A stretch of DNA of 24,000 nucleotides from the NCBI RefSeq assembly GCF_004341395.1, contig NZ_SLXT01000001.1, positions 111,748 to 135,747 of the forward strand, written 5' to 3'. This stretch comes from Heliophilum fasciatum. GTDB taxonomy: Bacteria; Bacillota; Desulfitobacteriia; Heliobacteriales; Heliobacteriaceae. Below, in pieces: positions 434 through 23,685 of this stretch (its first letter is position 1; every line of letters begins with the position of its first letter). The position numbers and the translations under genes are program-made. The notes under the pieces were generated by a model. The model worked only from the letters and a program-made list of their open reading frames with translations, made no database searches and was not told where the DNA came from.

Positions 434-1867
434 ATGCGTATCAATCACAATATACCGGCAATGAATACCTATCTCTATCAGTCCAATAATACCGCCAAAG
501 CGACCAAAGTCATGGAAAAACTGTCTTCCGGCATGCGCATCAACGGCGCGTCCGATGATGCCGCCGGTTTAGCTGTGTCGGAAAAAATGCGCTCGCAAAT
601 CCGCGGCTTACGCCAAGCGGATCGGAACGCCTTAGACGGGATTTCCATGATCCAAACGGCCGAAGGCGGCCTTGCTCAGATCCAAGCATCATTGCAACGA
701 GTGCGTGAACTTTGCGTACAAGCGGCTAATGATACCTATAACCTGAGTGACCGGCAGGCTGTTCAAGAAGAAATCGATCAAATCATCAACGGGATTACTA
801 CGACCGTGAACACCACCGAATATAATAAGACCAAATTATTGCGCCCGCCGATCATCGAAGCCTCCACCGGCAACGGCAAAGCCGATATTGTCTTTGTCGT
901 CGATAATACAGGCAGCATGGCCGGAACCCAGACCAATGTGGCCAACAACCTCGGTGCATTCATCAACAGTGTTACCGGCAAAGGTGTTACTGAACTGCGC
1001 ATGGGCGTCCTGGAGTATACCGATTTTACGTATGACATCAAACAGTTTTCCAGCAGTCCCTGGACCGGCAACGCCACCGATATTCAAGATGCCTTACTTA
1101 AATTGGCTGCGACAAACTCGGGAGGCATTGAAAATGCCATGACCGCCCTGGAACTCGTCGCGAATCAATACAGCTTTCACGAAAATACCAACGGTGCCAT
1201 TACGAAGCATGTTGTGCTGGTCACCAATGAGAATGCCGATGATGAAGGTAAATTATCGGGTACATTAGCGCTCTTGCAATCCAAAGGAATTCGCGTTCAC
1301 GGAGTCTATGACAAAAATTTTTATGAAGGCACGGCCGACCTCGATACCCTCACCCAAGCTACCGGCGGAAAATCAGTCAATTTATCGAGCCCTTCCTGGG
1401 GGACGGAACTGATTGATGTGATCGGGGCATCGATCGGTTCCGACGCAACACCGATCGAATCTGATGAAATGCCCGTCATTACACTGCAAATCGGGGCGAA
1501 TCAAGGACAGACCTTTACGCTTCCCTTATTCGATTCAAGACCGGAAAAGCTGGGCCTCACCGGCCTTTCCGTAGCTACTCACCAATCCTGTCAAGAGGCC
1601 CTCGTCAAAACCGATGAAGCATTAAAAACCATCGCCTATCGACGGGCGCTCTACGGTGCTTATCAAAACCGCTTGGAGTTTGCCGGCAACATCACCGGCA
1701 GTTATCAGATCAACATTACCTCGGCTGAATCACGGATCCGCGATACCGATATGGCCCTAGCCATGGCCGATTACACCCGGACGAATATCATCGATCAGGC
1801 GGCAACGGCCATGTTGTCCCAGGCCAATCAATTGCCCCAGGGGATTTTACAACTGTTAAAGGCGTAA
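434..1867 (+). CDS. fliC: flagellin with a vWA-like domain replacing the central variable region
   Basis: GAGGAGGG lies 5 nt before the ATG. The N-terminus (MRINHN...GMRINGASDDAAGLAVSEKMRSQIRGL...QTAEGGL) and C-terminus (LQIGANQGQ...YGAYQNRLE...LSQANQLPQGILQLLKA) are canonical flagellin D0/D1. Residues ~148-335 start with DIVFVVDNTGSM (DxTxS MIDAS-like), followed by NSGGIENAMTAL and HVVLVTNENADD. Confidence 0.9.
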   Translation: MRINHNIPAMNTYLYQSNNTAKATKVMEKLSSGMRINGASDDAAGLAVSEKMRSQIRGLRQADRNALDGISMIQTAEGGLAQIQASLQRVRELCVQAANDTYNLSDRQAVQEEIDQIINGITTTVNTTEYNKTKLLRPPIIEASTGNGKADIVFVVDNTGSMAGTQTNVANNLGAFINSVTGKGVTELRMGVLEYTDFTYDIKQFSSSPWTGNATDIQDALLKLAATNSGGIENAMTALELVANQYSFHENTNGAITKHVVLVTNENADDEGKLSGTLALLQSKGIRVHGVYDKNFYEGTADLDTLTQATGGKSVNLSSPSWGTELIDVIGASIGSDATPIESDEMPVITLQIGANQGQTFTLPLFDSRPEKLGLTGLSVATHQSCQEALVKTDEALKTIAYRRALYGAYQNRLEFAGNITGSYQINITSAESRIRDTDMALAMADYTRTNIIDQAATAMLSQANQLPQGILQLLKA

Positions 1868-3200: not shown

Positions 3201-3524
3201 CTACCGGAAAAGCTGCTTGAACTCACCCTTGAAGATTTTGAAGTTGAGCACCATGTGGGCAATCACCGGTAATACGATGCCGAAGCCCAGCAAAATATGC
3301 AGTCCCTTGAGCAGCTTACCGGACATGCCTAAGAACGTCCACCCTTGTACTGCGGCCGGACCGTGGGGTGCCACTAGTAAACCTAATCCCGTTACCGTGA
3401 CCACCATGCCGAAAAGAGCCAGCATCATGGAAATAATCGCTTTGGTTTTGCCATTGGATACCGCCTTAGCTTGTGTTGCCCGCTCGTTGAAACCTGCGGT
3501 CATTTGATTATTCATCGTACTCAT
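3201..3524 (-). CDS. small His-containing membrane protein, paralog A (tentatively DUF4405-like)
   Basis: Start MSTMNNQ with a GGGAGG RBS, matching the start of paralog B. It has a TM helix plus the motif LHILLGFGIVLPVIAHMVLNFK. By eye it is about 75% identical to the 4332..4664 product. Confidence 0.7.
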   Translation of the reverse strand: MSTMNNQMTAGFNERATQAKAVSNGKTKAIISMMLALFGMVVTVTGLGLLVAPHGPAAVQGWTFLGMSGKLLKGLHILLGFGIVLPVIAHMVLNFKIFKGEFKQLFR

Positions 3525-3567
3525 CGTGATAGCCTCCCGAATCATTTTGATTTCTTTCGATGGCTTT

Positions 3568-3702: not shown

Positions 3703-4194
3703 TTGATTACCATTGAAGCCGTCACTTCCACATCACAACTGGAACAAATCGGGGAACTCTTTCGTGAATACCAAATTTCTCTGGGCATTGACTTATGCTT
3801 TCAGGATTTTGAGCGCGAATTGGCCAACCTTCCCGGCAAGTATGCACCGCCGCAAGGGCGGCTTTATCTGGCGTTGTGCGACGGAATGCCCGCCGGCTCG
3901 ATCGCTTTACGTCCCCACCAAGATGATCAATGTGAGATGAAGCGCCTTTATGTGCGTCCGGCTTTTCGGGGCCGGCAGATCGCCCGGTTGCTGACCCGGC
4001 AAATCATTGCCGATGCTCAAGCGATCGGTTACCGGCAAATGGTTCTGGATACCTTGTCGACGATGACAGCAGCCTGTGCGCTTTATCAATCCTTAGGTTT
4101 TCAACCGATTCCACCGTACTGTTTTAATCCGCTCGCTCATGTTTGCTATCTGGGGCTAGACTTGACCCTGCAAGATAAGGAGTCTCGGCAATAA
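3703..4194 (+). CDS. GNAT family N-acetyltransferase
   Basis: Acetyl-CoA motif A is present: MKRLYVRPAFRGRQIARLLTRQII...GYRQMVLDT. The ~160 aa size fits the family. The start is TTG. Confidence 0.85.
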   Translation: MITIEAVTSTSQLEQIGELFREYQISLGIDLCFQDFERELANLPGKYAPPQGRLYLALCDGMPAGSIALRPHQDDQCEMKRLYVRPAFRGRQIARLLTRQIIADAQAIGYRQMVLDTLSTMTAACALYQSLGFQPIPPYCFNPLAHVCYLGLDLTLQDKESRQ

Positions 4195-4331: not shown

Positions 4332-4664
4332 TTACCGAAAAAGCTGTTTACACTCACCCATGAACATTTTGAAGTTGAGCACCATGTGCGCCATCACCGG
4401 CAACACCATCCCAAAGCCGAGCCAGATGTGTAAGTCTTTCATCACTCGGCCACTCATCCCCAGGAAAGTCCAGCCCTGAGCTGCTGCCGGTCCGTGCGGG
4501 GCCGCCATCAAACCCAAACCGGTTACGGTGACGATGATACCAAAAAGAGCCAGCATCATCGAAATAATCGCTTTGGTTTTCCCGGTCGATCCAGCTTTTG
4601 CACTTGTCGCTTTGGCTGCGAGACCGTTTAATTCTACCGTTATTTGATTGTTCATCGTACTCAT
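4332..4664 (-). CDS. small His-containing membrane protein, paralog B (tentatively DUF4405-like)
   Basis: Product MSTMNNQITVELNG...LHIWLGFGMVLPVMAHMVLNFK. A GGGAGG RBS precedes it. It is a paralog of 3201..3524. Confidence 0.75.
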   Translation of the reverse strand: MSTMNNQITVELNGLAAKATSAKAGSTGKTKAIISMMLALFGIIVTVTGLGLMAAPHGPAAAQGWTFLGMSGRVMKDLHIWLGFGMVLPVMAHMVLNFKMFMGECKQLFR

Positions 4665-4757: not shown

Positions 4758-5285
4758 CTACATTATTGAATTTTGCTGGAGGTACTGCAAAAGTTCTTGC
4801 CCGTGCTGCTGTTCTTCCTTCTGAATATGGTTAAAAGCCTGCCGCACTTGGGGATTGTTGAATTGGAAAATCGCTGAGTCATAGGAAGAAGAAATATACT
4901 GTTCCGTCACCAGCATGTCCCTGCACAACTGCAGATCATCCTCGTTTGCCTGTGAAGATGAACCGGCTACGGACGATAGCAGACCCTGGGACGCCATATT
5001 TTGTTGCTGCATGTTTGGGGACTGCTGCATGCTTTGCTGTTGCTGACCTTGTTGCTGACCTAGCTGCTGACCCTGCTGCTGGTTCATCGCCGGTACTTGA
5101 CCGCTCAAGATCTGATTGACCGTATTTAAGTGCTGCTGTTCGTGCTGGGCATGCTTTTGAAACATCTGCTTTAACACTGGGTCCTGCGCCTGTTGGGCAT
5201 AACTCTTGTACTTATAAACACAAAGCTGTTCATGAGATTGCTGATCTTCCAGTAAGCCCCGCTCCCGTTGGGTAAGTTGCAGCAT
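4758..5285 (-). CDS. CotF-like spore coat protein with a Gln-rich linker
   Basis: The ATG at 5285 has GGGAGG 7 nt upstream. There are two Coat-F-like helical halves (LLEDQQSHEQLCVYKYKSYAQQAQDPVLKQMF...; LCRDMLVTEQYISSSYDSAIFQFNNPQVRQAF...EEQQHGQEL). They are joined by QQQGQQLGQQQGQQQQSMQQSPNMQQQN (nt 4998..5084). Confidence 0.7.
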   Translation of the reverse strand: MLQLTQRERGLLEDQQSHEQLCVYKYKSYAQQAQDPVLKQMFQKHAQHEQQHLNTVNQILSGQVPAMNQQQGQQLGQQQGQQQQSMQQSPNMQQQNMASQGLLSSVAGSSSQANEDDLQLCRDMLVTEQYISSSYDSAIFQFNNPQVRQAFNHIQKEEQQHGQELLQYLQQNSIM

Positions 5286-5313: not shown

Positions 5314-7332
5314 CTAGTTTGGGAACGGAGACGCTGCTTTATACCCCCCAGCGGAGCAGGAAGACAATCCATTGATTACGGGCAGACAAATGATCAACGT
5401 CGTACCTTGACCTACCTTCGATTCCACATGAATCGAACCGCCGAGCAGTTCCACTTCCCGCTGAACCGCTGACAAGCCCACCCCTCGTCCGGAAATGATG
5501 CTAATATTGTCTTTGGTAGAAAAGCGATCACGAAAGATCAGCGCAATCACTTCCTGATCGGATAAGCATGCTGCCTCTTTTTCGCTGATCACTCCCTTGT
5601 TCAGCGCTTTGGCGCGGATCAACGCCGGATCGATTCCGTGCCCGTCATCGTGAATCCGCATCGTCAAAAAGTTGTTCGGGGCCGAGCGGATCTCGATGGC
5701 CACCGTACCGCTTTCCGGCTTACCGGCAGCCAAACGCGTATGACTGTCTTCAATCCCATGATCGACAATGTTACGAAAAATATGGTTCAAGGATTTACAA
5801 AAATCTTTGTAAGCACCTTGCTCGATAAAAATATCATCACCGGTAATTACCAGTGGCTGCAAAATTTTATCAAGGCGTATGGCCAGATTCTGTACATATT
5901 CATCATAGGATGCGACAATTTGTTTTAAATTTTTGCAACGCAGCCGTTTGATCAATGGCAACAGTTGATCCTGTTGTTCCGCTGAAAAGGCTTCTTGTAC
6001 ACGTCGTTCAATGTCGAGAATCTGTTCCGCCGTCACACAAAAAGATTGGCTCTGCCAGAAGAAGTCTTCGCCAAGGATATCGGTAATCGTTTCCATATCA
6101 CGGGCCAAAAAGGACTGATAATCAATGGTGCTGATCAAGTGTTCGATATCGCGCTGGGATATTTGATCAAATGATTCACACATGGCGGCCAGCCGGTCTT
6201 CCAGTTCATGAAGATGAAGAGCCGTATTCCGCAAGTACATCTGCGAGAAATCCCCTTTAAAAGTATGGACCGTACGAAAAATCACCGAAAGCTTCTCGGT
6301 CACCGGACAAGGGCTGGCCAGAATTTCATACACACTTCGGGTGAAAAACTCCCGCAGCCCTTCCATGCTGTTGATCATCTCGCTTTGGTTGGAAAGTGCC
6401 TTCAGCACCAACTGCAAGTTGTTTTTCTCGGCCTCCATCTTTTGTTCCAGCTCTTTTTTTTCCGTTACGTTGGTCATGATGGTCATGATCATCTTTTTTT
6501 CCGCTTGGGTAATCAGTTTGTACTCACAATGTAAAAATACATTTTTAATTTTGATTTCCTCAGGCAGTAAAGAGAGATAGACCTTCCTTTCCAGTTCCTT
6601 CTGGGTATTGAAAATACTTTGCAAAACCACCGCCAGGATTTGCTTTTGATCATTGGCGATATAATCGTTCAATACATCGACAAAATTCAGCCCGCCGATT
6701 TCTTGACCGAAAAGGCTGACACATTCCTTGCTGTACTCGGGGGAAATGATTAAGTCTTCCCCAAACAACAAAAAGCCTTGGCCGGCATTATCTAACAAGC
6801 TCTTGATCGTTTCTTTTTGTTTATGTAACAAGCGAAGTTGTTTTTCTCGCCGGCGGGCTAACTCCATGGTAAAGTTGCGGATGCTGATCACGCCCAGGTA
6901 GCGGGTTTGATCGTTGATGATGATAAAGTCGTATAAATTCTCCTGCGGGCGATTCATGGCCAAGGTACCCATATGGGTCAAATCCATAAAGTGCTGCAGA
7001 ATCAGCGGCGTCTTCTCCATCATTAAGCTTACTGGACGATTCAGATATAGTTCCCGTCCAAAAGGGCGGCCAATCTTACGGTAAAAATAATTGCGCATGA
7101 TTAAACCGACAGCACGATCATCATGCAAGACAACGATACCTTCCAGTGACTCCTGTGCTTCAAAGATCTGCTGCACCACCGAACCTTCAACGGTAACACT
7201 CACGGTGGGAACTTGTTGGATCAACTGATGAACGGTTACATCATACTGCTCATCATGAGACGAACGATCATGCTTGGCCAGCAAATTCAGATGTCGATAA
7301 GGATTGCTGAGGCTTTCTTCCCGTAATGCCAT
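5314..7332 (-). CDS. CheA-like histidine kinase: CBS pair, PAS-like, HPt(P1), P3-like, P4 (HATPase); no P2 or P5
   Basis: HPt motif FRTVHTFKGDFS. CheA-type ATP-binding region HIFRNIVDHGIED...GKPESGTV...DDGHGID...SGRGVGLSAVQ...GGSI...GQGTT. The protein ends 21 aa after the G2/LP region, so there is no CheW-like domain. N-terminal CBS-like repeats are present (GIVVLHDDRAVGLI, FIIINDQTRYLGVISI). The start is either ATG 7332 (TAGGAG, 6-nt spacing) or ATG 7338. Confidence 0.85.
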   Translation of the reverse strand: MALREESLSNPYRHLNLLAKHDRSSHDEQYDVTVHQLIQQVPTVSVTVEGSVVQQIFEAQESLEGIVVLHDDRAVGLIMRNYFYRKIGRPFGRELYLNRPVSLMMEKTPLILQHFMDLTHMGTLAMNRPQENLYDFIIINDQTRYLGVISIRNFTMELARRREKQLRLLHKQKETIKSLLDNAGQGFLLFGEDLIISPEYSKECVSLFGQEIGGLNFVDVLNDYIANDQKQILAVVLQSIFNTQKELERKVYLSLLPEEIKIKNVFLHCEYKLITQAEKKMIMTIMTNVTEKKELEQKMEAEKNNLQLVLKALSNQSEMINSMEGLREFFTRSVYEILASPCPVTEKLSVIFRTVHTFKGDFSQMYLRNTALHLHELEDRLAAMCESFDQISQRDIEHLISTIDYQSFLARDMETITDILGEDFFWQSQSFCVTAEQILDIERRVQEAFSAEQQDQLLPLIKRLRCKNLKQIVASYDEYVQNLAIRLDKILQPLVITGDDIFIEQGAYKDFCKSLNHIFRNIVDHGIEDSHTRLAAGKPESGTVAIEIRSAPNNFLTMRIHDDGHGIDPALIRAKALNKGVISEKEAACLSDQEVIALIFRDRFSTKDNISIISGRGVGLSAVQREVELLGGSIHVESKVGQGTTLIICLPVINGLSSCSAGGYKAASPFPN

Positions 7333-7418
7333 GGTCATCTCCTACTGTCGCCCGGAATCCTCCGGCTTCTGCTTGTATGGGCTTTCTGCTGTTGATTCGA
7401 TCGACCTTTTGCTCTGAC

Positions 7419-7781
7419 TTACGCATTCAGTGCATCATCAATAGCGGTCCGAACTGCGTTTTCATCAAACGGTTTGGTTACATAACATTTGGCCCCGTGG
7501 TGGACAGCTTCCAGGATCTTGGCTGCATGCCCCAACGCGGAGATCATAACCACTTTGGCCTGGGTATCCCTTTGGAGGATGGCCTGTAATGCCTTAATCC
7601 CGTTCATTTTCGGCATGGTGATGTCCATCGTGACCAAGTCCGGTTTTAATTCGCTGAATTTTTGGCAAGCTTCTTCGCCGTCAACGGCTTCACCGACGAC
7701 AGTATGCCCGGAAGTATGGATAATTCTCCTCAATGCACTGCGTGACAAGTTCGAATCGTCACAGATCAGAATGCGAGCCAA
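7419..7781 (-). CDS. CheY-like single-domain response regulator
   Basis: The receiver residues are all present: ILICDDS, LVTMDITMP, VVMISA, TKPF. I prefer the TTG at 7781 (AAGGAGG 8 nt upstream, immediately after the upstream TAA), which gives 120 aa. The track's 151-aa version overlaps the upstream gene. Confidence 0.85.
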   Translation of the reverse strand: MARILICDDSNLSRSALRRIIHTSGHTVVGEAVDGEEACQKFSELKPDLVTMDITMPKMNGIKALQAILQRDTQAKVVMISALGHAAKILEAVHHGAKCYVTKPFDENAVRTAIDDALNA

Positions 7782-7794
7782 CCTTGATTCCTCC

Positions 7795-8721
7795 TTAAAC
7801 TGTTCCTTGTTCATCCTTGGACTGCTGTTCCAGCAGGTGTACCCCTTCAGCGATAAGGTAATCAAAATGTCCAAAGGTCATATGAACGGGAATGCGAAAA
7901 AAAGGTTTACTGTTACATAGCGATTGCCTTTTCAGGGCCACCGGCGGCAACAACTCCACCATGACGCCTCGCTGAGCAAGCGAAGCCTCAACCATGCCTC
8001 CGACAATGTTCAAGAGTTCACAAAGCGAATCGGCCATTTCGTTATCATCGACATTCATCGATTCCGCGAATAGCCTGGCTAATTTATTGAGTTTATCAAA
8101 GTTGCCGCCAACACCGACCAAGACGGTATAGTCACCTTGCATGACACTAAACATCAAATATTCAAAATCGTAATTCGTCAGCTTCTCCAAAGGCCCAAAT
8201 TGAAAGGATGCCTCAATAAACTTGATTACCTTGACAAAGGAAATCAGGCTGCTGCCGAAAATGGGGTCGGCAAATTCCATGGTGGTCTCGAAGGCCGTAA
8301 GTTCATCCATCATCATTTCTACACTCTCTTTTTGCAACGGTTCAACGGCAGCAGGATCACTTGTCGATTGTGATTTGTATTCGTCGATCAGCCTTTCAAT
8401 TTGCTCATAATCGAAAAATCCTTGGTTGACCAGCACTTGGCTAAAGGTAAGGTAGCTATGGATCGGTTGATCAAAAAGCTCTTCCATTTGGGCAATCGTT
8501 AGAAACCCTTCTTGAATGGCGATTTCACCGAAGCTTTTATCGCTTGCCCGTTGCAGTCGGTGAATGCGATCGACTTGTGCACCAGTCATGTAATCGCTGT
8601 CAATGGCCAGAAGACCAAGTTTGACCCGCACAAATTGTTGGGCCGCCAACACTTCATCTAATTGCTCCAACGTCAAGATATTCCTCTGGTGGATAAAATC
8701 GTAAAAATATTGGCGATACAT
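7795..8721 (-). CDS. CheX-like CheY-P phosphatase fused to an N-terminal four-fold helical repeat domain (MshEN/T2SSE_N-like)
   Basis: The C-terminal half has DSLCELLNIVGG...x21..P, close to the CheC/CheX/FliY signature D/S-x3-E-x2-N-x22-P, and it occurs once only. The N-terminal 125 aa hold four repeats of the type hGxhhhxxGhhTxxQhxxhhxxQ. The ATG is at 8721. Confidence 0.7.
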   Translation of the reverse strand: MYRQYFYDFIHQRNILTLEQLDEVLAAQQFVRVKLGLLAIDSDYMTGAQVDRIHRLQRASDKSFGEIAIQEGFLTIAQMEELFDQPIHSYLTFSQVLVNQGFFDYEQIERLIDEYKSQSTSDPAAVEPLQKESVEMMMDELTAFETTMEFADPIFGSSLISFVKVIKFIEASFQFGPLEKLTNYDFEYLMFSVMQGDYTVLVGVGGNFDKLNKLARLFAESMNVDDNEMADSLCELLNIVGGMVEASLAQRGVMVELLPPVALKRQSLCNSKPFFRIPVHMTFGHFDYLIAEGVHLLEQQSKDEQGTV

Positions 8722-8780
8722 GATTGCCTCACTCTCAAGATGCCATCGGAAAAGCCAACTTATATCCGGTTTTGTGTTAA

Positions 8781-8808
8781 CCCTGGAAAAATCATAGCAA
8801 ACCACCTT
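8781..8808 (-). promoter_or_regulatory. candidate sigma-A-type promoter for the CheX-CheY-kinase operon
   Basis: On the minus strand: TTGATG (8808..8803), 16 nt, TATGAT (8786..8781). It lies about 60 nt upstream of the ATG. Confidence 0.45.
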
Positions 8809-8843
8809 TATCCATCAATGGACTTTGTGTTAAATTCATGTAA

Positions 8844-8881
8844 ACTTATAAACCCTCCATCCCGCTACGCGATGGAGGGTT
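8844..8881 (-). terminator. terminator after crcB
   Basis: Perfect 11-bp stem AACCCTCCATC / GATGGAGGGTT with a 9-nt loop. It starts at the crcB stop codon and is followed by UUUAUAAGUUU, a moderate U tract. Confidence 0.6.
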
Positions 8882-9258
8882 TACCCCAGAAAATAACCTA
8901 GCCCACAAGCCAGCAATCCCATGACCGTTGTACCCAAGAGATAGGTAAAAAATTTATCCCATTTGCCCAACTCAATCAAACGTACCGCTTCATAGCCAAA
9001 GGTTGAAAAGGTCGTATAGGCACCTAAAAAGCCGATCTGCCATCCATAGCGTTCCACCAGGGCCGCCATCGAGCCATCATCGGTTACTGATTCCAGATGG
9101 GCCGCCGAAAGCCCAAGCAAAAAGGCCCCGGTAACATTGATGAACATGGTCATCCAGGGAATCTTCGCCCCCGGCCAGCGTTTGCCGCTCCACAGCGCCA
9201 GCCCGTAGCGCAGCCAGGCGCCACCAATACCGCCCAACCCAATCCACAACAATTCCAT
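8881..9258 (-). CDS. crcB: fluoride ion channel CrcB/Fluc, second subunit
   Basis: Product MELLWIGLGGIGGAWLRY...GFLGAYTTFSTF. The ATG at 9258 has an AGGAGG RBS that overlaps the upstream stop. Confidence 0.9.
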   Translation of the reverse strand: MELLWIGLGGIGGAWLRYGLALWSGKRWPGAKIPWMTMFINVTGAFLLGLSAAHLESVTDDGSMAALVERYGWQIGFLGAYTTFSTFGYEAVRLIELGKWDKFFTYLLGTTVMGLLACGLGYFLG

Positions 9259-9262
9259 CGGT

Positions 9263-9706
9263 TTATTCCTCCTGCGCCGGCTGACCTTCGGTTCGCGCAC
9301 CTTGCGATCGGTGGTGCCGTCGCTGGGCCCGCTCCAAGTTGCGCGCCCAGAACACACCCAGCGCCGACAAAACGGTGCCGCCAGCGATGCTGGCCATCAG
9401 GTAGATCCCTAAGGACCAAAAAGCCCGGCTGTTCAAGAGATAAACACATTCTAACGTAAAGGTTGAAAAAGTAGTAAAAGCCCCTAAAAAACCGGTGCCC
9501 AATCCCACCCGGATGGAGGGGCGTACAGAATAGTATTCAAGGGTAATTGTCAAAAAGAAAGCGAGCACCAAGCAGCCGCTCAAGTTAATAAGCAGCGTTC
9601 CCCAGGGAAAACCGCTCTGGGCCACCCAAGGAGCGCACCACTGCCCCATCTCATAGCGCAGGATCGCCCCAAGGAACCCTCCGATGCCGACGGCCAATAA
9701 CTGCAT
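9263..9706 (-). CDS. crcB: fluoride ion channel CrcB/Fluc, first subunit, with a charged C-terminal tail
   Basis: Product MQLLAVGIGGFLGAILRY...GFLGAFTTFSTF. A GAGGAG RBS precedes it. The extra tail is NLERAQRRHHRSQGARTEGQPAQEE. Confidence 0.9.
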   Translation of the reverse strand: MQLLAVGIGGFLGAILRYEMGQWCAPWVAQSGFPWGTLLINLSGCLVLAFFLTITLEYYSVRPSIRVGLGTGFLGAFTTFSTFTLECVYLLNSRAFWSLGIYLMASIAGGTVLSALGVFWARNLERAQRRHHRSQGARTEGQPAQEE

Positions 9707-14061: not shown

Positions 14062-15135
14062 TTGAACACTTTGGTAAGACGCGACGAACTGACCTCGTTA
14101 GAACGAATCGCCACCGCACTCCAGTATAAAAAACCCGATCGCGTACCTGTTGCCCCCTTGGTTTGTGGTGCCTCCCACCGGGTCTTAGGAACAAGCTATG
14201 ACAAATGGTCCATGGACGCCGACTTGGCAACCAGAAGCCTCCTGGCCGCCCATGAGATCATCGGATTTGATTCCTTCTTGACCCTGGTCGATTTATCGGT
14301 CGAGGCCTACGACTTTGGACAGGAAGTTGTTTTTCCCAAGAACAGCACCGCCTACACCGAAACAAGCAATCCATTGATCAAAACGGTCGAGGACTATTAC
14401 AAACTTACGCCCATCAATCCCCGGGAAACCACACGGATGAGCATGGTTATCGACATGTGCGCCGGACTGTCGAAGGCTCGCGGCAAAGACACCGCCGTCA
14501 TCGGCTTCGTCTATGGCCCTTTAGGTGTGCTTTCCCAACTGCGCGGTCATGAGCGGATGTTTGTCGACTGCATTCGCCACCCTGAGGCGATTCTTCATGC
14601 CGTAGAAGTGCTTACTGAAGTGCTGATTGAATATGCGAAAGCCCAGATCGAAGCAGGTGCCCATGCGATATGTATTGATACCCTCTACGCGTCAGGGAGC
14701 ATTATGAGTAAGCGCATGTGGGAAAAATTCGAAGGTCCCTTTGCCAAGCGCATTGCCGATGCGATTCGCGCAGCCGGGGTAACCGTATTGCTCCATAACT
14801 GCGGCAATAAAATCTATTTTGACGTCCAGGAAAAATGGTGCAATCCCACAGCCATCTCCCATGCCTACCCCTCCGATGACTGCGCTGACTGGGATGAACA
14901 TGCCCGGAAATGGGGGAAGAAAATCGTCACCATCGGCTACTCCGTTCCATCCGATACGGGGATCATGATGAGCCCGGAAGAAATCATGGAAGATTGCCGC
15001 AAGCAGATCGAAACGTTTAAAGATTGCGACGGCGGGTTTATCTTGGCCACCGGCTGCGAATTCCCCCCAAACGGTAATTTATTAAGCGCCATCGCTATGG
15101 TAAACGCCTCCAAAACATACGGCCGTTACAGCTAA
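14062..15135 (+). CDS. URO-D family (MtaA/CmuA-like) corrinoid methyltransferase
   Basis: N-terminal KPDRVPVAP. Zn-ligand pattern LLHNCGN ... ATGCEFPPN. The ~350 aa size fits the family. The start is TTG at 14062 or TTG at 14071; AAGGAAG ends at 14061. Confidence 0.85.
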   Translation: MNTLVRRDELTSLERIATALQYKKPDRVPVAPLVCGASHRVLGTSYDKWSMDADLATRSLLAAHEIIGFDSFLTLVDLSVEAYDFGQEVVFPKNSTAYTETSNPLIKTVEDYYKLTPINPRETTRMSMVIDMCAGLSKARGKDTAVIGFVYGPLGVLSQLRGHERMFVDCIRHPEAILHAVEVLTEVLIEYAKAQIEAGAHAICIDTLYASGSIMSKRMWEKFEGPFAKRIADAIRAAGVTVLLHNCGNKIYFDVQEKWCNPTAISHAYPSDDCADWDEHARKWGKKIVTIGYSVPSDTGIMMSPEEIMEDCRKQIETFKDCDGGFILATGCEFPPNGNLLSAIAMVNASKTYGRYS

Positions 15136-15296
15136 ACCGTTCAGGTGATTTCTCTACCCTGAAAATCCCCTCGCTGTTGCTTTCATCCTTTGGGGTGCTA
15201 CATAGCAGCATGTTGTCTATTTTACCCGAAGTGCTCAGCGTGCGATCAAGCTTACCGGATTAATTGCAAAGTAATAAAAAGGAAGTGACTGTCCTA

Positions 15297-15944
15297 ATGT
15301 CAGAACTGAAAGATAAATTATTCCAAGAGCTTTCCGATGCCGTTGTGGATATGGATGAGGATAAGACGGTAGCGACCAGCCATCGCGTGATCGAGGAAGG
15401 CATCGACGCATATGAAGCGATTGAAAACGGCCTCGCCCATGGCATGGATCGAGTCGGCGAGCTTTTTGACCAAGAAGAATACTTCATTCCCGAAGTGTTG
15501 ATGAGTTCCGACGCCATGTATGCCGGTGTGGAAGTGCTGAAACCCCATCTGAAGGCGACCGAGCAGGGAGAAAAAACCAAAGTCGTCATCGGTGTTGTTG
15601 AAGGCGATACCCATGATATTGGCAAAAACCTCGTCAAAATTATGCTCGAGACCTCTGGTTTTGAAGTCATCGACTTGGGTCGGGATATTCCACCGCAGCA
15701 GTTTGTCGACAAAGCTACTGAAGTAGGTGCCCAGATCATCGGACTGGCGACCTTGATGACAACCACCATGGATGGCATGCACGAAGTCATTCGCATCTTG
15801 GAACAAAAAAATATTCGCAGCCAGTTCAAGGTGATGATCGGTGGCGGACCGATCTCACAGGCCTTTGCCGATAAAATCGGTGCTGACAGTTACGCCGTCA
15901 ATGCAGCCGACGCCGTGAGAAAAGCACGAAAACTGGTCAGCTAA
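15297..15944 (+). CDS. cobalamin-binding corrinoid protein (MtaC/MtbC-like)
   Basis: DxHxxG motif (EGDTHDIGKN), S/TxL (GLATLMTTT) and GG (MIGGGP), plus the N-terminal helical cap domain. The ATG at 15297 has AAGGAAGTGA 8 nt upstream. Confidence 0.9.
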   Translation: MSELKDKLFQELSDAVVDMDEDKTVATSHRVIEEGIDAYEAIENGLAHGMDRVGELFDQEEYFIPEVLMSSDAMYAGVEVLKPHLKATEQGEKTKVVIGVVEGDTHDIGKNLVKIMLETSGFEVIDLGRDIPPQQFVDKATEVGAQIIGLATLMTTTMDGMHEVIRILEQKNIRSQFKVMIGGGPISQAFADKIGADSYAVNAADAVRKARKLVS

Positions 15945-15988
15945 GTTGGTAGAACGGCGGCTCATTTAGTCGGTATATTAAAAAGCCA

Positions 15989-16031
15989 ACGCCCTCGGAC
16001 ATCCAGTCAGGAGCCGAGGGCGTCTTTCTTT
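15989..16031. terminator. bidirectional terminator between convergent operons
   Basis: ACGCCCTCGG / CCGAGGGCGT is a perfect 10-bp stem with a 15-nt loop. CTTTCTTTG follows on the plus strand, and a TTTTTAATA-type run follows on the minus strand. Confidence 0.75.
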
Positions 16032-16066
16032 GCCCACAAGTACGTCTGGCCAATCGCCCTTTCCCC

Positions 16067-17650
16067 TCAACTACCGGACGAACGCATCTGATCAATCAAA
16101 TGATCCACCGTCCGCCAGGCCAGCGCCATCGCCGTCAGCGTCGGATTAGACGCTCCCGACGTTACAAACAGTGACGTATCGGCAATAAATAAATTGGGAT
16201 GATCATGCGTCCGCCCCCAAGCATCGGTCACTGACGTCGCCGGGTCCTTGCCCATCCGGCAGCCGCCCAGCATGTGCGACGTATCGGGCGCCACAAATTC
16301 CACTCGCCCGCCGGCCGCTTCCAAGATGCGTTTGGCCATCGCCACGCCGGCTTCAATCACTTTATGATCATTATCACCGTAGGAAAAGGTGATCAGCGGT
16401 ACCGGCAGTCCCGATGCATCGATCTCCCCGGTCAGCGTCACGCTGTTGTTCACCTGTGGAAGCACCTCGCCGACCATGGTGATCCGTGCGAAAAAGTTAT
16501 AATCCCGGGCGATTTCCCGCAGATTCGCTCCCCAGGCACCGCTGGCTTTTACCACCGGGCGCAAAAAACCGAGTGGCCGTGATCCATGGGAATGCAGCGT
16601 AAAGCCCCGCTTGCGCGAACCATCCTTGGGCGTTTCATAAAATTCCTGGGTCGTCGCCATGATCGGCGTACCTTTATAAGGCAACACTTCGACCGGGAAG
16701 CGCGCAATCACCTCATGGCCCGAATGGAGCATAAAACACTTACCGACCATGCCGCTGCGATTGGCCAGCCCCTGGGGATGCCCTGCATCCATCGACATCA
16801 GCAACAGCCGGGGCGTTTCGATCGCCGAAGCGCAAAGAACAACAATAGCCGCCCGCTGCCGGTATTCGGTCCCATCATATAAGAAGGTAACCCCTTCTAC
16901 ACGTTCATCATCATCCACGAGAATCGAATTGACCATACAACCTGGGCGCAATTCCACCCTGGCTTCCACCGCCTGGGAAATGTGATGAATCAAGGTGGAA
17001 AACTTCGAGTTCGGCAAGCATCCCTGCGCACAAAAACCGCGATTGATGCAAGGCGGTCGTCCTTCATAGGGCGCTGAAAGAATCGCCAGCGGTGCCACCG
17101 TACTCCGGATCCCCAAGCGCTCGCAGCCTTCCCGAAACAACTGGTGCGTCACAGCGATCGGTTCCCGCTCCGGGTACGGATAGGAACCTTTGAAGCCGCC
17201 CCAGGGATACTCCTTCGGCCCCGAAACAGGGATTTCTTTTTCCAACCGCTCATAATAAGGCACCAGATCATCATAGGCGATCGGCCAGTCTTCCCCAACC
17301 CCATCGGCGGTGCGGATGTGAAAATCGGAAGAAAAAAACCGTGGCGTCACGGCCGTAAAGTGAATCGTACCGCCACCCACACCGGTTCCGGCGATGTTAT
17401 GGCCCAGTTCCGGCGGATCGGCGCCGGCCGTCAGCCGCTTGGCCCGCCAGGCCGTCTTGCGCATATGCAGTTCATCGCTGACAAAGTCCCGCTCCACCTG
17501 CCAGTGCGGTCCTGCTTCTAGCAAAACCACCTTGCAGCCGGCTCGCCCCAGTTCCCGGGCGACCAGCCCACCCGTCGCGCCGGCACCGACGACCACCACA
17601 TCAACCGTTTCATCCAGCCAAGGCCACGGTGCTCCATGCGTTGCACTCAT
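16067..17650 (-). CDS. GMC family FAD-dependent oxidoreductase (gluconate 2-dehydrogenase flavoprotein-like)
   Basis: Rossmann fold VDVVVVGAGATGG...LLEAG. GMC C-terminal domain HMLGGCRMG...PNLFIADTSLFVTSGASNPTLT. Its start has an ATGA overlap with the upstream gene. Confidence 0.85.
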   Translation of the reverse strand: MSATHGAPWPWLDETVDVVVVGAGATGGLVARELGRAGCKVVLLEAGPHWQVERDFVSDELHMRKTAWRAKRLTAGADPPELGHNIAGTGVGGGTIHFTAVTPRFFSSDFHIRTADGVGEDWPIAYDDLVPYYERLEKEIPVSGPKEYPWGGFKGSYPYPEREPIAVTHQLFREGCERLGIRSTVAPLAILSAPYEGRPPCINRGFCAQGCLPNSKFSTLIHHISQAVEARVELRPGCMVNSILVDDDERVEGVTFLYDGTEYRQRAAIVVLCASAIETPRLLLMSMDAGHPQGLANRSGMVGKCFMLHSGHEVIARFPVEVLPYKGTPIMATTQEFYETPKDGSRKRGFTLHSHGSRPLGFLRPVVKASGAWGANLREIARDYNFFARITMVGEVLPQVNNSVTLTGEIDASGLPVPLITFSYGDNDHKVIEAGVAMAKRILEAAGGRVEFVAPDTSHMLGGCRMGKDPATSVTDAWGRTHDHPNLFIADTSLFVTSGASNPTLTAMALAWRTVDHLIDQMRSSGS

Positions 17651-18324
17651 TCCCCCGCCTCCCCTACCGCCACACCATGCACCGGATCATCGGGCATCGA
17701 TGAAGGCCCCAGCCCTGCACCGCGCCGTTTTTGCATTTGCTCTGTATTCAGTACCGGCTCCCAGGGATCTTTAAGCCCACTTTCCAACCGGTAATAACCG
17801 CGCGGGTAGGCCGGGCCGCCAAAACCGATTTCCGACCAGATATCGGGTTGCGAAAAGAAAAAATCAACAGCGCTCAACAAGGCATGCTGAAAAAAGTCCT
17901 TCGCCGGCACCGTAGCCCAGGTCACCGTGCCTTGCTGCACTTGCAGCAGCAAGTTATCCCGCTCCAGTGGCGTCAAGGCGACAAAACTCCGCCCGTACTC
18001 GGCCACGGCCGTGCGTTCCAATTCACCGAGCCCGTAACGCCAAAGCACTTCTTCATCGGGCAAATGGGTCGGGTGATACCCCTGCCCTCTTCGCTTAGCC
18101 AGATGCTCGTCCAATTGACCAGCCACCCGGAGCAACCGCCCTTCGTCGGCATCACCGACAAGCGCGCCGATCAATACCTGAATACAAGTGAATTCCGTAG
18201 ACGTAAAAAAGCGCGGCTCTGACGGCTTCACCAAGCGATCAGCCACGATCCGTCGTGTACGTTCATCCCAGTGCGCTTGCTCGGCCATCACATCATAACC
18301 GGGATACATGCTGTTCATGATCAT
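17647..18324 (-). CDS. gluconate 2-dehydrogenase subunit 3-like protein
   Basis: It is translationally coupled to the GMC gene. FFTSTEFTCIQVLIGALVGDAD resembles the family core. The start may be the ATG at 18318 (AAGGGGG, 6-nt spacing). Confidence 0.6.
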   Translation of the reverse strand: MIMNSMYPGYDVMAEQAHWDERTRRIVADRLVKPSEPRFFTSTEFTCIQVLIGALVGDADEGRLLRVAGQLDEHLAKRRGQGYHPTHLPDEEVLWRYGLGELERTAVAEYGRSFVALTPLERDNLLLQVQQGTVTWATVPAKDFFQHALLSAVDFFFSQPDIWSEIGFGGPAYPRGYYRLESGLKDPWEPVLNTEQMQKRRGAGLGPSSMPDDPVHGVAVGEAGE

Positions 18325-18329
18325 CCCCC

Positions 18330-18725
18330 TTACCAGTACATGGCCAACAGCCCCAGAACCGACAAGGCCGACAACATCATCGGCAAGATCAGCGGCGGCC
18401 CAATCATGATATTATGAAGGCCCCAGCCGCCCACGCGCTGGCCCACGCCGCGGCCATGAAAATAAATCCCCAGCAACGAACTGCCCAGTTCCAACCATAA
18501 CGCAAGGATAAACAACAAGCGCATTGTCACCGTTTCCTTAGCCACCAGCAAAAAACCCAACAGCGCCGCAATCGGCAACCCGATTACCGGTCCCCACATG
18601 GCCCAGTGCCGAAAATTTTGCCGGTAATGAAACAGCGTCACCTGCACCGCCAGCAGCGCAAAAGCCAGCGACGTAAAAAGCACCAGCGTTCGCTCCCAGG
18701 GCCAACCTACCCAGCGATCGATCAA
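18330..18725 (-). CDS. small four-TM membrane protein with conserved-looking His residues
   Basis: TTG start with a GGGGGAGGTGAT RBS. Four hydrophobic segments are visible. The gene ends 5 nt before the next gene. No family recognised. Confidence 0.6.
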   Translation of the reverse strand: MIDRWVGWPWERTLVLFTSLAFALLAVQVTLFHYRQNFRHWAMWGPVIGLPIAALLGFLLVAKETVTMRLLFILALWLELGSSLLGIYFHGRGVGQRVGGWGLHNIMIGPPLILPMMLSALSVLGLLAMYW

Positions 18726-18769
18726 GATATCACCTCCCCCAAAATTCCTTACCCTTCACGCAACGTTGC

Positions 18770-18818
18770 AATAAAAAAGACCTTCTCCTTGCTTATTGTG
18801 AGCAAGAAGAAGGTCTTT
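18770..18818 (-). terminator. terminator after the acyltransferase gene
   Basis: On the minus strand: AAAGACCTTCT-t-CTTGCT / AGCAAG-g-AGAAGGTCTTT, followed by TTTTTATT. Confidence 0.85.
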
Positions 18819-18829
18819 CTATCCTGATT

Positions 18830-20050
18830 TCATGATTTTATCGAAAGTGAATCAACCGGTTCACCAACTGCCACCGGCGGCATCATCCGGCGTCGCCCCC
18901 CGGTTCCCACCAGCCAATGACCTCCGGGCAAGCGCGAAAGCAGTAACGATCCCCCATAGGCTACGGCCGTACAAAAGCCAAAAGCCACGAACATCTTCAG
19001 CACCGGGTTCAGCACCGGCAAAAACCGAATCACCACCCGGGCCACATAATCAAGCGCCAGCGCATGCATTAAATACGCACCGTAGGAATGACGGCCCAAC
19101 GCTTTTAAAGCGCCAGACCAGCGCACCTGCGTCTGCCACGCCCGGGAAGCGGCATAGAGCAAGATCAGCATGCTCACCGAGTACAGCGCCATGGTGGGCT
19201 TCAGCGTTGTGGAAACATTGATATCCACCGCCGGAACACCGGGACCATTGGCACCAAAGGACAGACTGCCCACCAGCGGGTAAGTCACGATCAGGAACAA
19301 GACCAACCCGATCCCCAAGTTCCCAAAGGCATACCGCTCTGCCCAGGCCCGCCATTGATCAATGTACATCCCCACGATTCCGCCGAGGATAAAGTAGAAA
19401 AACCAGAAAAGCAAATTGCGATCACGATAATCGGCAAACAACTGCCAAGCCCGCCAACCGGCCCAGCGTTCACTCCATAAGGGAATCATATCAACGGACA
19501 ACCACATCAACAGCAGATAGCCCACAGCCAAACCCAGAATCCAGGCAAGCCCCTGCCTACTCGTTGTCAGCCGCGGCCCGATCGCCAGCCAGCCCTGGCG
19601 GAACAAGGGAAAAAACAAATAAAACTGAAAAATCATCACCACAAACCACAGGTGATAGCAGCCGGTCCCCGTCAGCAACGCTTTCAAAAAATACCGCAAT
19701 CGCTCAACCGCGCCAGCACCAATCGCCGGATCGCCGCTGATCCAGATCGCATCGGCCACATAGATCAAGGTCCAAAAAAAATAGGGCACCATGATCTCGC
19801 GAAAGCGCTTACCTAAAAACTGCCCATACTTCAATCGTTCCCCGTAGTTATAGAAAAGAACGATACCTGTAATAAACACAAACATCGGTACGGCAAACTT
19901 CACCAGATTAAAGACAATCGCCAAGGTGATCACATCACCAATATGTACATCAGGCCGGCGCAGGAAAATCCCGAGCGTGTGTTGCAGCACCACTCCCAAA
20001 AACGCCAACCCCCGCAGATCATCGATCTCCGGAATCGCCCCTTTGGCCAC
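18830..20050 (-). CDS. acyltransferase family 3 (OatA-like) integral membrane protein
   Basis: N-terminal LRGLAFLGVVLQH motif and about 10 TM helices. The GTG start has AAGGCGGTG 5 nt upstream. Confidence 0.8.
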   Translation of the reverse strand: MAKGAIPEIDDLRGLAFLGVVLQHTLGIFLRRPDVHIGDVITLAIVFNLVKFAVPMFVFITGIVLFYNYGERLKYGQFLGKRFREIMVPYFFWTLIYVADAIWISGDPAIGAGAVERLRYFLKALLTGTGCYHLWFVVMIFQFYLFFPLFRQGWLAIGPRLTTSRQGLAWILGLAVGYLLLMWLSVDMIPLWSERWAGWRAWQLFADYRDRNLLFWFFYFILGGIVGMYIDQWRAWAERYAFGNLGIGLVLFLIVTYPLVGSLSFGANGPGVPAVDINVSTTLKPTMALYSVSMLILLYAASRAWQTQVRWSGALKALGRHSYGAYLMHALALDYVARVVIRFLPVLNPVLKMFVAFGFCTAVAYGGSLLLSRLPGGHWLVGTGGRRRMMPPVAVGEPVDSLSIKS

Positions 20051-20285
20051 AGGTCCACCGCCTTTACACTAAAAAAAACCAGCGAGGCAGTTACGTACCG
20101 GGGCAAATGGTTAGATATGGCCATTCACGGCGCAAGCAACCATCTCCCCATCGCCAACCCTCACTGGCCTGCTTAGCGTACTATACCATGGACAAGCAGA
20201 AAAAAGTATCCCTTTGATCAAACCACCTTTTCTTAACCCTACCGTTCCATCTTCTCAAGAAATACAAGGTGACTCTTCATCGGCG

Positions 20286-20939
20286 TTATTTCAACGGCTC
20301 CAGCAGCCGTTTATAGTAAAATCCCGTATTATACAGCGCTGCTGCCGGGTTATGGCCGAGCACGCGATCCTTAACGATCAATGTGGTCACTGGCGCCTCT
20401 GAATACTTGATAAACATGGAGTCATGACCTACACAAAGGCCGATGATCACGTTGAGATCGGTTTTTTCACGGTTTAGCAGGCGTGCTTGCATCACCGGAT
20501 TGCATAGGGACTCATGGCATCCCTGGTTGACTTTCATCGACTCGGGAATACCGATCTCCGTCTTATCGATCGCGCCGACCTTGCAAAGGACGCTGTAATT
20601 CTCCAGGCCGTTGATCGCTAGAATGCGCGCGAACACCTTCGCTTCTTGACTTAAACCGATGCACGTAGCCAGTCCAATCTTTTTGGCTCCGATGCGCTTG
20701 GCAAAAGCGACAATCTCCTCGACACGGGTCAGCCTGCCGTAATAGGTACCTTCCACCTCTGCAGCCGCTTTGGTGAGCCGGGCAATCGCCGGATCTTCCT
20801 GGTAAAGCGTCTTTAGTTCTTCACGTTCCGTTGCTGTGATCGCCGTCGTCAGGCAAAAAGCAGGGAACGTTCCTTCGGCCGGACGGGCACAATTCAAGAC
20901 GCCGCAATCGGAACAGCTCAATGTTTTTTTCTCACTCAT
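20286..20939 (-). CDS. DUF1847-type Cys-rich metal-binding protein
   Basis: CSDCGVLNC...PAFC, CHESLCNP, IIGLCVGHD and KDRVLGHNP match my recollection of DUF1847. The ATG is at 20939. Confidence 0.6.
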   Translation of the reverse strand: MSEKKTLSCSDCGVLNCARPAEGTFPAFCLTTAITATEREELKTLYQEDPAIARLTKAAAEVEGTYYGRLTRVEEIVAFAKRIGAKKIGLATCIGLSQEAKVFARILAINGLENYSVLCKVGAIDKTEIGIPESMKVNQGCHESLCNPVMQARLLNREKTDLNVIIGLCVGHDSMFIKYSEAPVTTLIVKDRVLGHNPAAALYNTGFYYKRLLEPLK

Positions 20940-20962
20940 TGGTGTACCTGTCACTCCTGCAC

Positions 20963-22657: not shown

Positions 22658-23685
22658 CCTCGGGCACCTCCTCGCACCGTCTCGGTCAACGCCTGGATCT
22701 TCGCGATCGACGTGGATGTACTCAAGCCGCAAGCCGGGGCAATGATATCGACCTGATCCCTGACCAGTTGTTCCGCCTGCCTTGCCACTTGATCAGCCGA
22801 ACCAAACTCCAGCAAATAGGTGCTCAAATTACCCATCGTCGTCAACGCCGGAAAATCTTCCTTGAGCCGCCTGAGACTGACCATCGCATCGGTGCTGATC
22901 GCATCCGAGCGAATCGCCGGGATCAAGTGGCGGACCGCTTTCATATCGCCGCAGATATGTACAATCACCGGTGCGCCGACGGCGTGAATGCCATCGATCA
23001 CCTGGTTCAAATAAGGCACCGCAAACTCTTCAAAACACTTGGGGCCTAAAATCTCCCCCGTTGCCGTCGGATCGCCGATGGAGATCACCGTCGCGCCGTT
23101 GTCGATCAACTCTTGGGCAAATTCCACAAGATGGCGGCTCACATAATCGAGTACGCGATGCACTTGTGCTTTGTTCTTGCGCAGTTCCTTAAAGAAGTTC
23201 ATCGGATCGATGATCGAAGCAGCCGTACTGATCGGTCCCGTCAAGTTACCGACAATGGGCACATCGGGACGGGCACGGTGCAAATGATAAGCGGCCTGGA
23301 TCACTGTGGCCGTGCGTCCCGTACCCATGCGGTACGCTCCATCGCGAAACTGAACCTGATCGGCCGAAGCAAACAATTCCCGGGCAATTTTCGGTTCACA
23401 AGCCAGCGTACCGTAATCAACATCAGCCCCCAACACTTCCGCTTCCACGGTCATGCAAAAGGGAATCCCCAGATTTTCAAACCCCGTATAGTCATGAATA
23501 TCCAGGGCGATTTGGGCCATTTTTTGCGCGTCATGATGTCCTTCGGGCAAGGTGTGACCGGTTTGATTCATCACGTCCACAATGGCTGCGTTCATCATCC
23601 CGCCAGGGCAAATCACGGGCGGGCGATCGGTCGTTTTTTTCTGTAATACCCGTTGTAATCGTTCTTGAGGACTGAGTGAACTCAT
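22645..23685 (-). CDS. URO-D family (MtaA/MtbA-like) corrinoid methyltransferase
   Basis: N-terminal TDRPPVICPGGMM. Zn-ligand pattern IVHICGD ... IIAPACGLS. Confidence 0.85.
   Translation of the reverse strand: MSSLSPQERLQRVLQKKTTDRPPVICPGGMMNAAIVDVMNQTGHTLPEGHHDAQKMAQIALDIHDYTGFENLGIPFCMTVEAEVLGADVDYGTLACEPKIARELFASADQVQFRDGAYRMGTGRTATVIQAAYHLHRARPDVPIVGNLTGPISTAASIIDPMNFFKELRKNKAQVHRVLDYVSRHLVEFAQELIDNGATVISIGDPTATGEILGPKCFEEFAVPYLNQVIDGIHAVGAPVIVHICGDMKAVRHLIPAIRSDAISTDAMVSLRRLKEDFPALTTMGNLSTYLLEFGSADQVARQAEQLVRDQVDIIAPACGLSTSTSIAKIQALTETVRGGARGWLA

Follow-up and report, generated by a model that had tools for sequence, protein, structure and literature searches.

Within a 24,000-nucleotide stretch of the genome of the phototroph Heliophilum fasciatum (contig NZ_SLXT01000001.1; the whole stretch is hereafter called the window), three consecutive open reading frames on the minus strand encode, in this order, a protein with N-terminal repeats and a CheX domain (gene 1), a single-domain CheY (gene 2), and a CheA-like kinase (gene 3). 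The encoded proteins are identical to the H. fasciatum proteins whose accessions are listed in Table 1. The co-oriented and tightly spaced arrangement described in an initial annotation of the window was recovered, with 13 nucleotides separating gene 1 from the CheY gene and 80-86 nucleotides separating the CheY gene from the kinase gene, depending on the kinase start, and the stop codon of gene 1 does lie within the ribosome binding site of CheY, where TAA and AAGGAGG overlap. This cassette probably supplies every component of a cytoplasmic phosphorylation cycle centred on a single CheY, which would operate independently of chemoreceptor arrays; its biochemical steps, ligands, and output I infer from sequence and predicted structure.

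The start codons of genes 1 and 3 needed a choice. GTG 8805, the start of gene 1 in the list of open reading frames, was rejected as it lies inside a promoter-like site and public gene calls give a protein of 308 amino acids; the equivalent of ATG 8721 is the start in 64 homologues of the gene 1 protein. For the kinase, ATG 7332 appears more likely than ATG 7338, with a GGAG 7 nucleotides upstream of 7332, and corresponds to the 672-amino acid form in NCBI. Residue numbers nevertheless follow the 674-amino acid form throughout, such that His358 is H356 in the 672-amino acid form.

Table 1. Genes, predicted domains, and candidate signals of the cassette and its immediate borders, in window positions.
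Feature	Position	Strand	Details
Gene 1, (MshEN-type repeat)x4-CheX	7795..8721	(-)	ATG 8721 to TAA 7797-7795; 308 amino acids; WP_131917743.1, annotated 'hypothetical protein'
Four MshEN-type helical repeats, 24 residues each	8377..8709	(-)	Gene 1 residues 5-28, 34-57, 63-86, 92-115; 5-residue spacers
CheX domain, predicted phosphatase	7846..8265	(-)	Gene 1 residues 153-292; model pLDDT ~90
Predicted catalytic motif D231-SLC-E235-LL-N238 (D/S-x3-E-x2-N)	8008..8031	(-)	Codons verified
Gene 1 stop overlapping CheY Shine-Dalgarno	7790..7797	(-)	TAA over AAGGAGG (7796-7790), 8 nucleotides ahead of TTG
Gene 2, CheY-type single-domain response regulator	7419..7781	(-)	TTG 7781 to TAA 7421-7419; 120 amino acids; WP_131917742.1, annotated 'response regulator'
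Gene 3, CheA-like kinase without P2 or P5	5314..7338	(-)	Stop TAG 5316-5314; 674 amino acids; WP_165876226.1, annotated 'ATP-binding protein'
Disordered N-terminus			Kinase model residues 1-32
CBS pair	6883..7239	(-)	Kinase residues 34-152; beta-alpha-beta-beta-alpha twice in model, pLDDT ~90
Long helix			Kinase model residues 153-184
PAS-like domain, predicted topology	6469..6780	(-)	Kinase residues 187-290; opens with invariant NAGQGFL
HPt four-helix bundle	6058..6387	(-)	Kinase residues 318-427; predicted phospho-accepting His358, codon 6267-6265, in HTFKGD
P3-like helical hairpin, dimerisation domain	5938..6030	(-)	Kinase residues 437-467
P4 ATP-binding domain	5377..5937	(-)	Kinase residues 468-654; N, G1, F, and G2 boxes intact
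Disordered tail, 20 residues			Kinase model residues 655-674
Promoter-like site	8791..8818	(-)	TTGATG, 16 nucleotides, TG-extended TATGAT (TGnTATGAT); ~70 nucleotides upstream of gene 1 ATG
Terminator-like hairpin between crcB and cassette	8850..8882	(-)	Directly 3' of upstream crcB; 12-bp G+C-rich stem, -23.4 kcal/mol, then UUUAUAAGUUU
CotF/ferritin-like gene	4758..5284	(-)	175 amino acids, Gln-rich middle; begins 29 nucleotides past kinase stop; own GGGAGG

The P3-P4 region of the kinase is clearly CheA-like, and phmmer aligned it from residue 459 onwards to the CheA structures 4XIV, 1I58, and 1B3Q at ~1e-36. Foldseek aligned 250 of the 252 columns of the Thermotoga maritima CheA P3P4 structure 4XIV to the kinase model, which had a predicted local distance difference test score (pLDDT) of 82.5, and the P4 domain matched CheA P4 structures with template modelling (TM) scores of 0.84-0.90 and 33-38% identity. 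Ahead of this core lies an HPt bundle that Pfam recognises in 24 of 27 orthologues (E = 0.0097 for the window kinase), and H358, K361, and G362 are invariant in all 27 (HTFKGD, an H-x-x-K-G context). Just two helices separate HPt from P4 in the model, leaving no P2, and the kinase stops 20 residues past P4, as do all 27 orthologues, leaving no P5, which bears out the CheA-type kinase without P2 and P5 that had been proposed initially. NCBIfam equivalogs for CheA were not reached (173.5 bits against 950 for CheA_Halo, 109.4 against 793 for PRK10547). Because the P5 domain, the genomic CheW and methyl-accepting chemotaxis protein (MCP) partners, and the curated scores all fall short of those of a CheA, the kinase is to be called CheA-like, not CheA.

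The cytoplasmic sensory inputs that the initial annotation placed on the kinase were supported to different degrees. The CBS pair is supported by the model and by Pfam CBS matches in 16 of the 27 orthologues (best 9.5e-10), with none in the window kinase itself. The second domain is PAS-like at the level of its predicted fold only: Foldseek produced ~510-column alignments of the kinase to PAS/LOV histidine kinases, and region 178-300, searched on its own in six orthologues, gave no Pfam PAS match.

Gene 2 encodes a stand-alone receiver with the full active-site set of a CheY (D8, D9, D53, S81, Y100, and K103, of which the D53 and K103 codons were verified) and a Response_reg match in Pfam at 2.6e-28. 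The eight best matches among solved structures were CheYs or CheY-containing chimeras (6ER7 at 4e-33 and 1TMY at 3e-31), and the protein is 48% identical to both T. maritima and P. horikoshii CheY, in agreement with its earlier designation as a 120-amino acid CheY. Among the best 25 of 103 NCBIfam matches there was one CheY equivalog, an archaeal one, for which the cassette CheY scored 114.7 against a cut-off of 200.

The CheX domain of gene 1 scored 26.2 bits with the Pfam model PF13690, for which the cut-off is 27, and many of its relatives have a recorded PF13690 match. A profile built from 65 family members matched T. maritima CheX (1XKO) over its full length at 8.8e-8, and the top 13 structures retrieved by Foldseek were all CheX/CheC-like (TM 0.66-0.80), solved CheX structures reaching 0.72-0.80 relative to the target. 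D231, E235, N238, and G242 are invariant across the 65 members and P259/P260 nearly so; the CheX motif expects a proline ~22 residues past the E-x2-N motif. By its fold and its catalytic residues, the domain is predicted to be a phosphatase of phosphorylated CheY (CheY-P), and the CheX-type phosphatase fusion of the initial annotation is retained on these grounds.

What had been noted as a repeat domain on the phosphatase could be assigned to four MshEN-type repeats. The N-terminal 115 residues of gene 1 form eight helices (pLDDT ~90-98) in an AlphaFold model with an overall pLDDT of 85.5, and the repeats, which begin at residues 5, 34, 63, and 92, keep exactly to a 29-residue spacing, the 24+5 register of the MshEN cyclic di-GMP (c-di-GMP) receptor domain. 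The protein exceeded the cut-off of the MshE-related NCBIfam model NF053729 (39.7 against 38 bits), and the 65-member profile matched the Vibrio cholerae MshE N-domain (5HTL) at 1.4e-5, aligning repeats 2 and 3 with MshE residues 5-62. The published relaxed 24-residue MshEN motif was exact (11/11 positions) in 59 of the 65 family members and in 1 of 1300 shuffles. In Heliophilum, the two central repeats have glycines (G36 and G65) equivalent to the critical G11 and G40 of V. cholerae and also keep their hydrophobic positions. The critical glycines are missing from repeat 4 (S94) and from repeat 1, which has none of its glycines: position 7, Gly in 63 of the 65 members, is Tyr (Y7). In Heliomicrobium modesticaldum, a member of the sister genus, the CheX fusion as annotated lacks repeat 1 and has a canonical central MshEN pair (RLG...Q / RFG...Q), and the annotated kinase, with 499 amino acids, covers 74% of the query and may be without the CBS pair; these short forms could result from wrongly annotated start codons or could be genuinely truncated.

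Relatives of the kinase were scanned in one genome per species, which returned at least 577 loci, and the best 80 were kept, comprising 32 full-length CBS-type orthologues and 48 others. The order MshEN2-CheX, CheY, and kinase, all in the same orientation, occurs at 25 of the 32 orthologous loci, distributed over Desulfobacterota (including Desulfovibrionaceae, Desulfomicrobiaceae, Desulfobacter, and Syntrophobacteraceae) and Bacillota (including Dethiobacter, Acetobacterium, Formimonas, Peptococcaceae, and Fusibacter), such that the self-contained operon of the initial annotation is conserved as a unit. At six loci CheY and kinase are followed directly by a short stand-alone CheX gene, and at the remaining one a YcgR-like PilZ gene lies ahead of CheY. 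The MshEN2-CheX family as a whole comprises ~454 clusters at E<=1e-30.

The 48 other kinases have varied sensor parts (HAMP, 7TMR-DISM, PAS, or GAF), and in 36 of them CheX is fused directly after P4, in the slot that P5 occupies in CheA; a further two are followed by a CheX gene of its own, which brings the loci with a fused or adjacent CheX to 69 of 80. Pfam domain lists had suggested an N-terminal CheX on these kinases, which was wrong, as the coordinates place it C-terminally, after P4. The E-x2-N motif is retained in all three CheX contexts (MshEN-linked, kinase-fused, and short), and a hidden Markov model of the MshEN-linked CheX misses the kinase-fused CheX, and the reverse, which makes them distinct subfamilies. 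Single-chain MshEN2-CheX-REC fusions, REC being the receiver domain, also exist, with a domain order that equals the gene order of the cassette; the coupling of CheX to CheY is therefore supported by these fusions, as is that of CheX to the kinase by the kinase-P4-CheX chains. Unlike HisKA-type kinases, CheA-type kinases are not known to have an intrinsic phosphatase activity, and this would be why the kinase family recruits CheX, either in cis or in trans. The minimal soluble kinase and phosphatase pair on one CheY that had been proposed is consistent with the cassette; it is no one-off, being part of a kinase family of at least 577 loci with CheX in place of P5. The gene after fused-CheX kinases encodes a response regulator with another output at several loci (L033, 10046..11056; L046, 9979..11475; L032, L036, L038, L045, L050, L060, L067, and L081), namely REC-GGDEF, REC-DUF2225, or, most commonly, REC plus a ~130-residue C-terminal domain without a Pfam match.

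Chemotaxis-type signalling is usually taken to need receptor arrays, to which CheA is docked via P5 and CheW. Pfam identified no CheW, MCP, CheR, or CheB among the open reading frames of the window, none is present in the public gene calls of the contig (a 21-kb view that takes in 10 kb around the cassette and reaches 2.6 kb beyond the window), and a CheW probe gave no match in the six-frame translation. The same probe placed CheW within 8 kb at 4 of the 80 loci and adjacent at none; four clear matches served as its positive control, and its results are indicative only. Because the kinase is without P5 and no CheW lies nearby, it is predicted to be unable to dock to receptor arrays in the canonical manner. 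Elsewhere, the H. fasciatum genome carries all of CheABCDRWXY together with at least five MCPs (PMC9147875), and the cassette is therefore an addition to the canonical system, not a replacement. The description of the system as receptor-less was accurate for the window; it does not extend to all relatives, as at four loci the next gene downstream, on the same strand, encodes an MCP (L089, 6004..7299; L005, 10019..11980; L008, 10044..11450; L019, 10435..11538). The cassette most closely related to that of Heliophilum is among these four, at which the kinase has no P5 and no CheW is adjacent.

Among 113 genes that flank the 32 cassettes, the commonest families were PilZ (5), GGDEF (4), MCPsignal (4), and EAL (2), and no CheW, CheR, or CheB family occurred more than once. 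A small PilZ gene lies directly upstream at four Bacillota loci, and a YcgR-like gene at a fifth. The flagellar switch is the most likely output of the cassette, judging by the 48% identity of its CheY to motor-binding CheYs and by the PilZ, YcgR-like, and MCP neighbours elsewhere, and this is the weakest step in the interpretation. A flagellin gene 3.4 kb from the Heliophilum cassette was considered as a link to motility and set aside as incidental, as no flagellin lies near any of the 80 related loci.

In the proposed cycle, the kinase would dimerise through its P3-like hairpin and P4 would phosphorylate His358 of the adjacent HPt bundle. Kinase activity may be set by the CBS pair, the ligand of which would probably be an adenosine nucleotide or a related metabolite, and by the PAS-like domain, with signals passing through the long helices to HPt. 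The phosphoryl group would be transferred from His358 to Asp53 of CheY, and the CheX domain of gene 1 would remove it with Glu235 and Asn238. Control of CheX would fall to the four MshEN-type repeats, and c-di-GMP binding, in the family at large, would couple the level of CheY-P to this messenger; in Heliophilum, with a partly eroded motif, binding may be weak or altered. CheY-P would finally act on the flagellar switch, in parallel to the canonical che system of the organism.

A number of observations weigh against this cycle or against single steps of it. The CheX and Hpt Pfam scores of the window proteins lie just under the curated cut-offs, and the marginal CheX score, together with the lack of P2 in the kinase and the presence of CheX on the kinase polypeptide in relatives, would also suit a CheX-like domain that acts as a CheY-docking scaffold in place of P2 and has no phosphatase activity. 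This is highly improbable given that the catalytic Asp/Ser-x3-Glu-x2-Asn residues are invariant in the 65 family members and present in the fused and short forms too, and that active CheX enzymes have the same fold. The messenger input is in greater doubt for Heliophilum itself: the gene 1 protein has a best motif score of 9/11, which is within the shuffle range and makes it the only one of the 65 members at this score, and it deviates at five signature positions (G7Y, G14N, G43D, R63S, and Q86P) with residues that are unique or rare in the family. G7Y is equivalent to G11L, which abolishes c-di-GMP binding by V. cholerae MshE, as does G40I, at a protein in which changes of polar residues cost less than five-fold (PMC5013675). 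A loss of binding through G7Y was consequently considered, and this view was softened as the 5HTL alignment uses repeats 2 and 3, where both critical glycines are kept. Since exact motifs occur in 59 of 65 members, and the Heliophilum copy combines five deviations with intact central glycines, c-di-GMP binding appears likely across the MshEN2-CheX family and uncertain for the Heliophilum protein. The second-messenger input proposed initially is hence supported by the type of repeat, a known c-di-GMP receptor module, and by PilZ, GGDEF, and EAL genes as the commonest neighbours elsewhere, and weakened by the deviating Heliophilum motif. A further complication is the cotF-like gene just past the kinase, which is preceded by no terminator.

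Doubt also attaches to the output and to the self-sufficiency of the cycle. The conserved alpha4-beta5 face of CheY could stem from binding to CheX, not to FliM, and the wider kinase family is not specific to motility, pairing as it does with REC-GGDEF, REC-DUF2225, and REC-plus-unknown-domain regulators. The cassette never adjoins flagellar genes in other genomes, c-di-GMP genes are its most frequent neighbours, and its CheYs form a tight group of their own. These points would fit the same cycle acting through a non-motor CheY partner on c-di-GMP turnover, surface attachment or bundle formation, or development, an alternative that I regard as rather unlikely, though the strongest of those considered, in view of the identity of the cassette CheY to bona fide motor-binding CheYs, its best solved relatives all being CheYs, the recurrent YcgR-like, PilZ, and MCP neighbours, and the fact that CheX is otherwise known solely with chemotaxis CheYs (PMC12799141). 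It is less probable still that the cassette is an accessory of canonical chemotaxis, in which MshEN-CheX would mainly act on the main CheY, the extra CheY would be a phosphate sink of the canonical CheA, and a metabolic bias would come from the neighbouring kinase. The complete che set and the MCPs elsewhere in H. fasciatum (PMC9147875) would favour such a role, as would the MCP gene after the cassette at four loci and the occurrence of MshEN2-CheX and CheY pairs without a kinase in Lachnospiraceae and metagenomic contigs, from which it follows that a CheY of this kind can be fed by other kinases. At 31 of the 32 orthologous loci, however, a dedicated kinase lies next to it, and the fusion of CheX to the kinase in 36 relatives suggests that kinase and phosphatase form a closed pair that acts on the neighbouring regulator.

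The self-contained cycle on CheY invites comparison with the canonical CheA-CheY-CheX core of T. maritima and of Borrelia burgdorferi (CheA2-CheY3-CheX). Both combine HPt-to-Asp transfer from a P3-P4 kinase to a single-domain CheY with a CheX that has an E-x2-N active site, the cassette being known from its genes, and P4 and CheY are 33-38% and 48% identical to the T. maritima proteins. The cassette differs in having no P2, P5, CheW, MCP, CheR, or CheB partners, in an HPt that lies directly ahead of P3 and is not N-terminal, in the CBS pair and PAS-like domain at the N-terminus, and in the MshEN repeats on CheX. Bifunctional HisKA-type kinases are similar in that a single sensor unit governs both the addition of phosphate to the regulator and its removal, and relatives that carry HPt-P3-P4-CheX in a single chain come closest to them, whereas the cassette and its relatives would use the unrelated chemistry of CheX instead of a DHp motif and carry the phospho-His on an HPt bundle.

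Gene 1 shares its architecture with the (MshEN_N)2-CheX entry of Wang et al. 2016 (Nat Commun 7:12481, Suppl. Table 4), which gives Geobacter lovleyi Glov_2742 as an example and 'Deltaproteobacteria, Firmicutes' as distribution, and which is a catalogue line without experiment, gene context, or partner kinase. The N-domain of V. cholerae MshE (5HTL), a high-affinity c-di-GMP receptor, has the same 24-residue motifs and 5-residue spacer, and its critical glycines are kept in gene 1; it has two motifs where gene 1 has four repeats, these are attached to CheX and not to a secretion or pilus ATPase, and gene 1 has Arg-to-Ser and Gln-to-Pro changes at polar contacts. A functionally parallel tie between c-di-GMP effectors and CheX or the motor is found in YcgR-type brakes and in the V. 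cholerae PilZ protein PlzC, which inhibits CheX independently of c-di-GMP (PNAS 2026). A PilZ or YcgR-like gene accompanies the cassette in five relatives, but the putative receptor of the cassette is fused to CheX itself and is of the MshEN type, not PilZ.

No description of the three-gene cassette, of P5-less CheA-type kinases with CheX, or of CheX-kinase fusions was found in a literature search that left most subscription journals outside its reach, and no characterised MshEN-CheX protein was found either. It is tentatively suggested that the cassette belongs to a large family of CheA-type kinases, as yet undescribed, whose P5 has been replaced by CheX, fused or next door, to form self-contained units, and in which the CBS clade with its MshEN-CheX would integrate a metabolic signal and c-di-GMP on a motor-binding CheY without an array. 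With at least 577 loci among species-representative genomes, this would be a CheA catalytic core that has been rewired to cytoplasmic sensors and has gained a phosphatase through the recruitment of CheX. Should the motor be the target of the CheY, the swimming of many anaerobes, among them sulfate reducers, acetogens, and heliobacteria, would be biased directly by metabolic state and c-di-GMP in parallel to chemoreceptors. It would also give the (MshEN)2-CheX proteins catalogued in 2016 their first functional context, and the eroded Heliophilum motif would offer a natural comparison between repeats with and without ligand binding.

The cassette appears to start its own transcript, because the upstream crcB gene ends in a strong hairpin and a promoter-like site precedes gene 1. 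The hairpin was missed by a terminator scan as its T-run is interrupted, and the promoter-like site is known only by its match to the consensus, such sites being no more numerous in the region than in the shuffled expectation. No terminator lies between the kinase and the cotF-like gene, which may be co-transcribed with the cassette, in H. fasciatum only. Upstream, crcB is one of two tandem fluoride channel genes (8881..9706, minus strand), before which no fluoride riboswitch was detected even at E<=1; an Rfam search of the window returned no RNA family.

Elsewhere in the window, the flagellin (477 amino acids; 434..1867, plus strand) has a von Willebrand factor A domain as its central variable region (PF00092 at 8.7e-12, residues 150-298), with DNTGS resembling a metal ion-dependent adhesion site. 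H. fasciatum is the heliobacterium whose cells gather in motile bundles, their flagella interwoven (PMC9147875), and an adhesive domain on the flagellar filament might be relevant to these bundles. Two paralogous small DUF4405 membrane proteins (3201..3545 and 4332..4664, minus strand) flank a GNAT acetyltransferase gene (3703..4194, plus strand). At the other end, positions 14062..23685 hold a corrinoid-dependent methyltransferase set of two URO-D-like methyltransferases, a B12-binding protein, and a RACo-type reductive activase, which is interleaved with a GMC oxidoreductase and Gluconate_2-dh3 pair and an acyltransferase.

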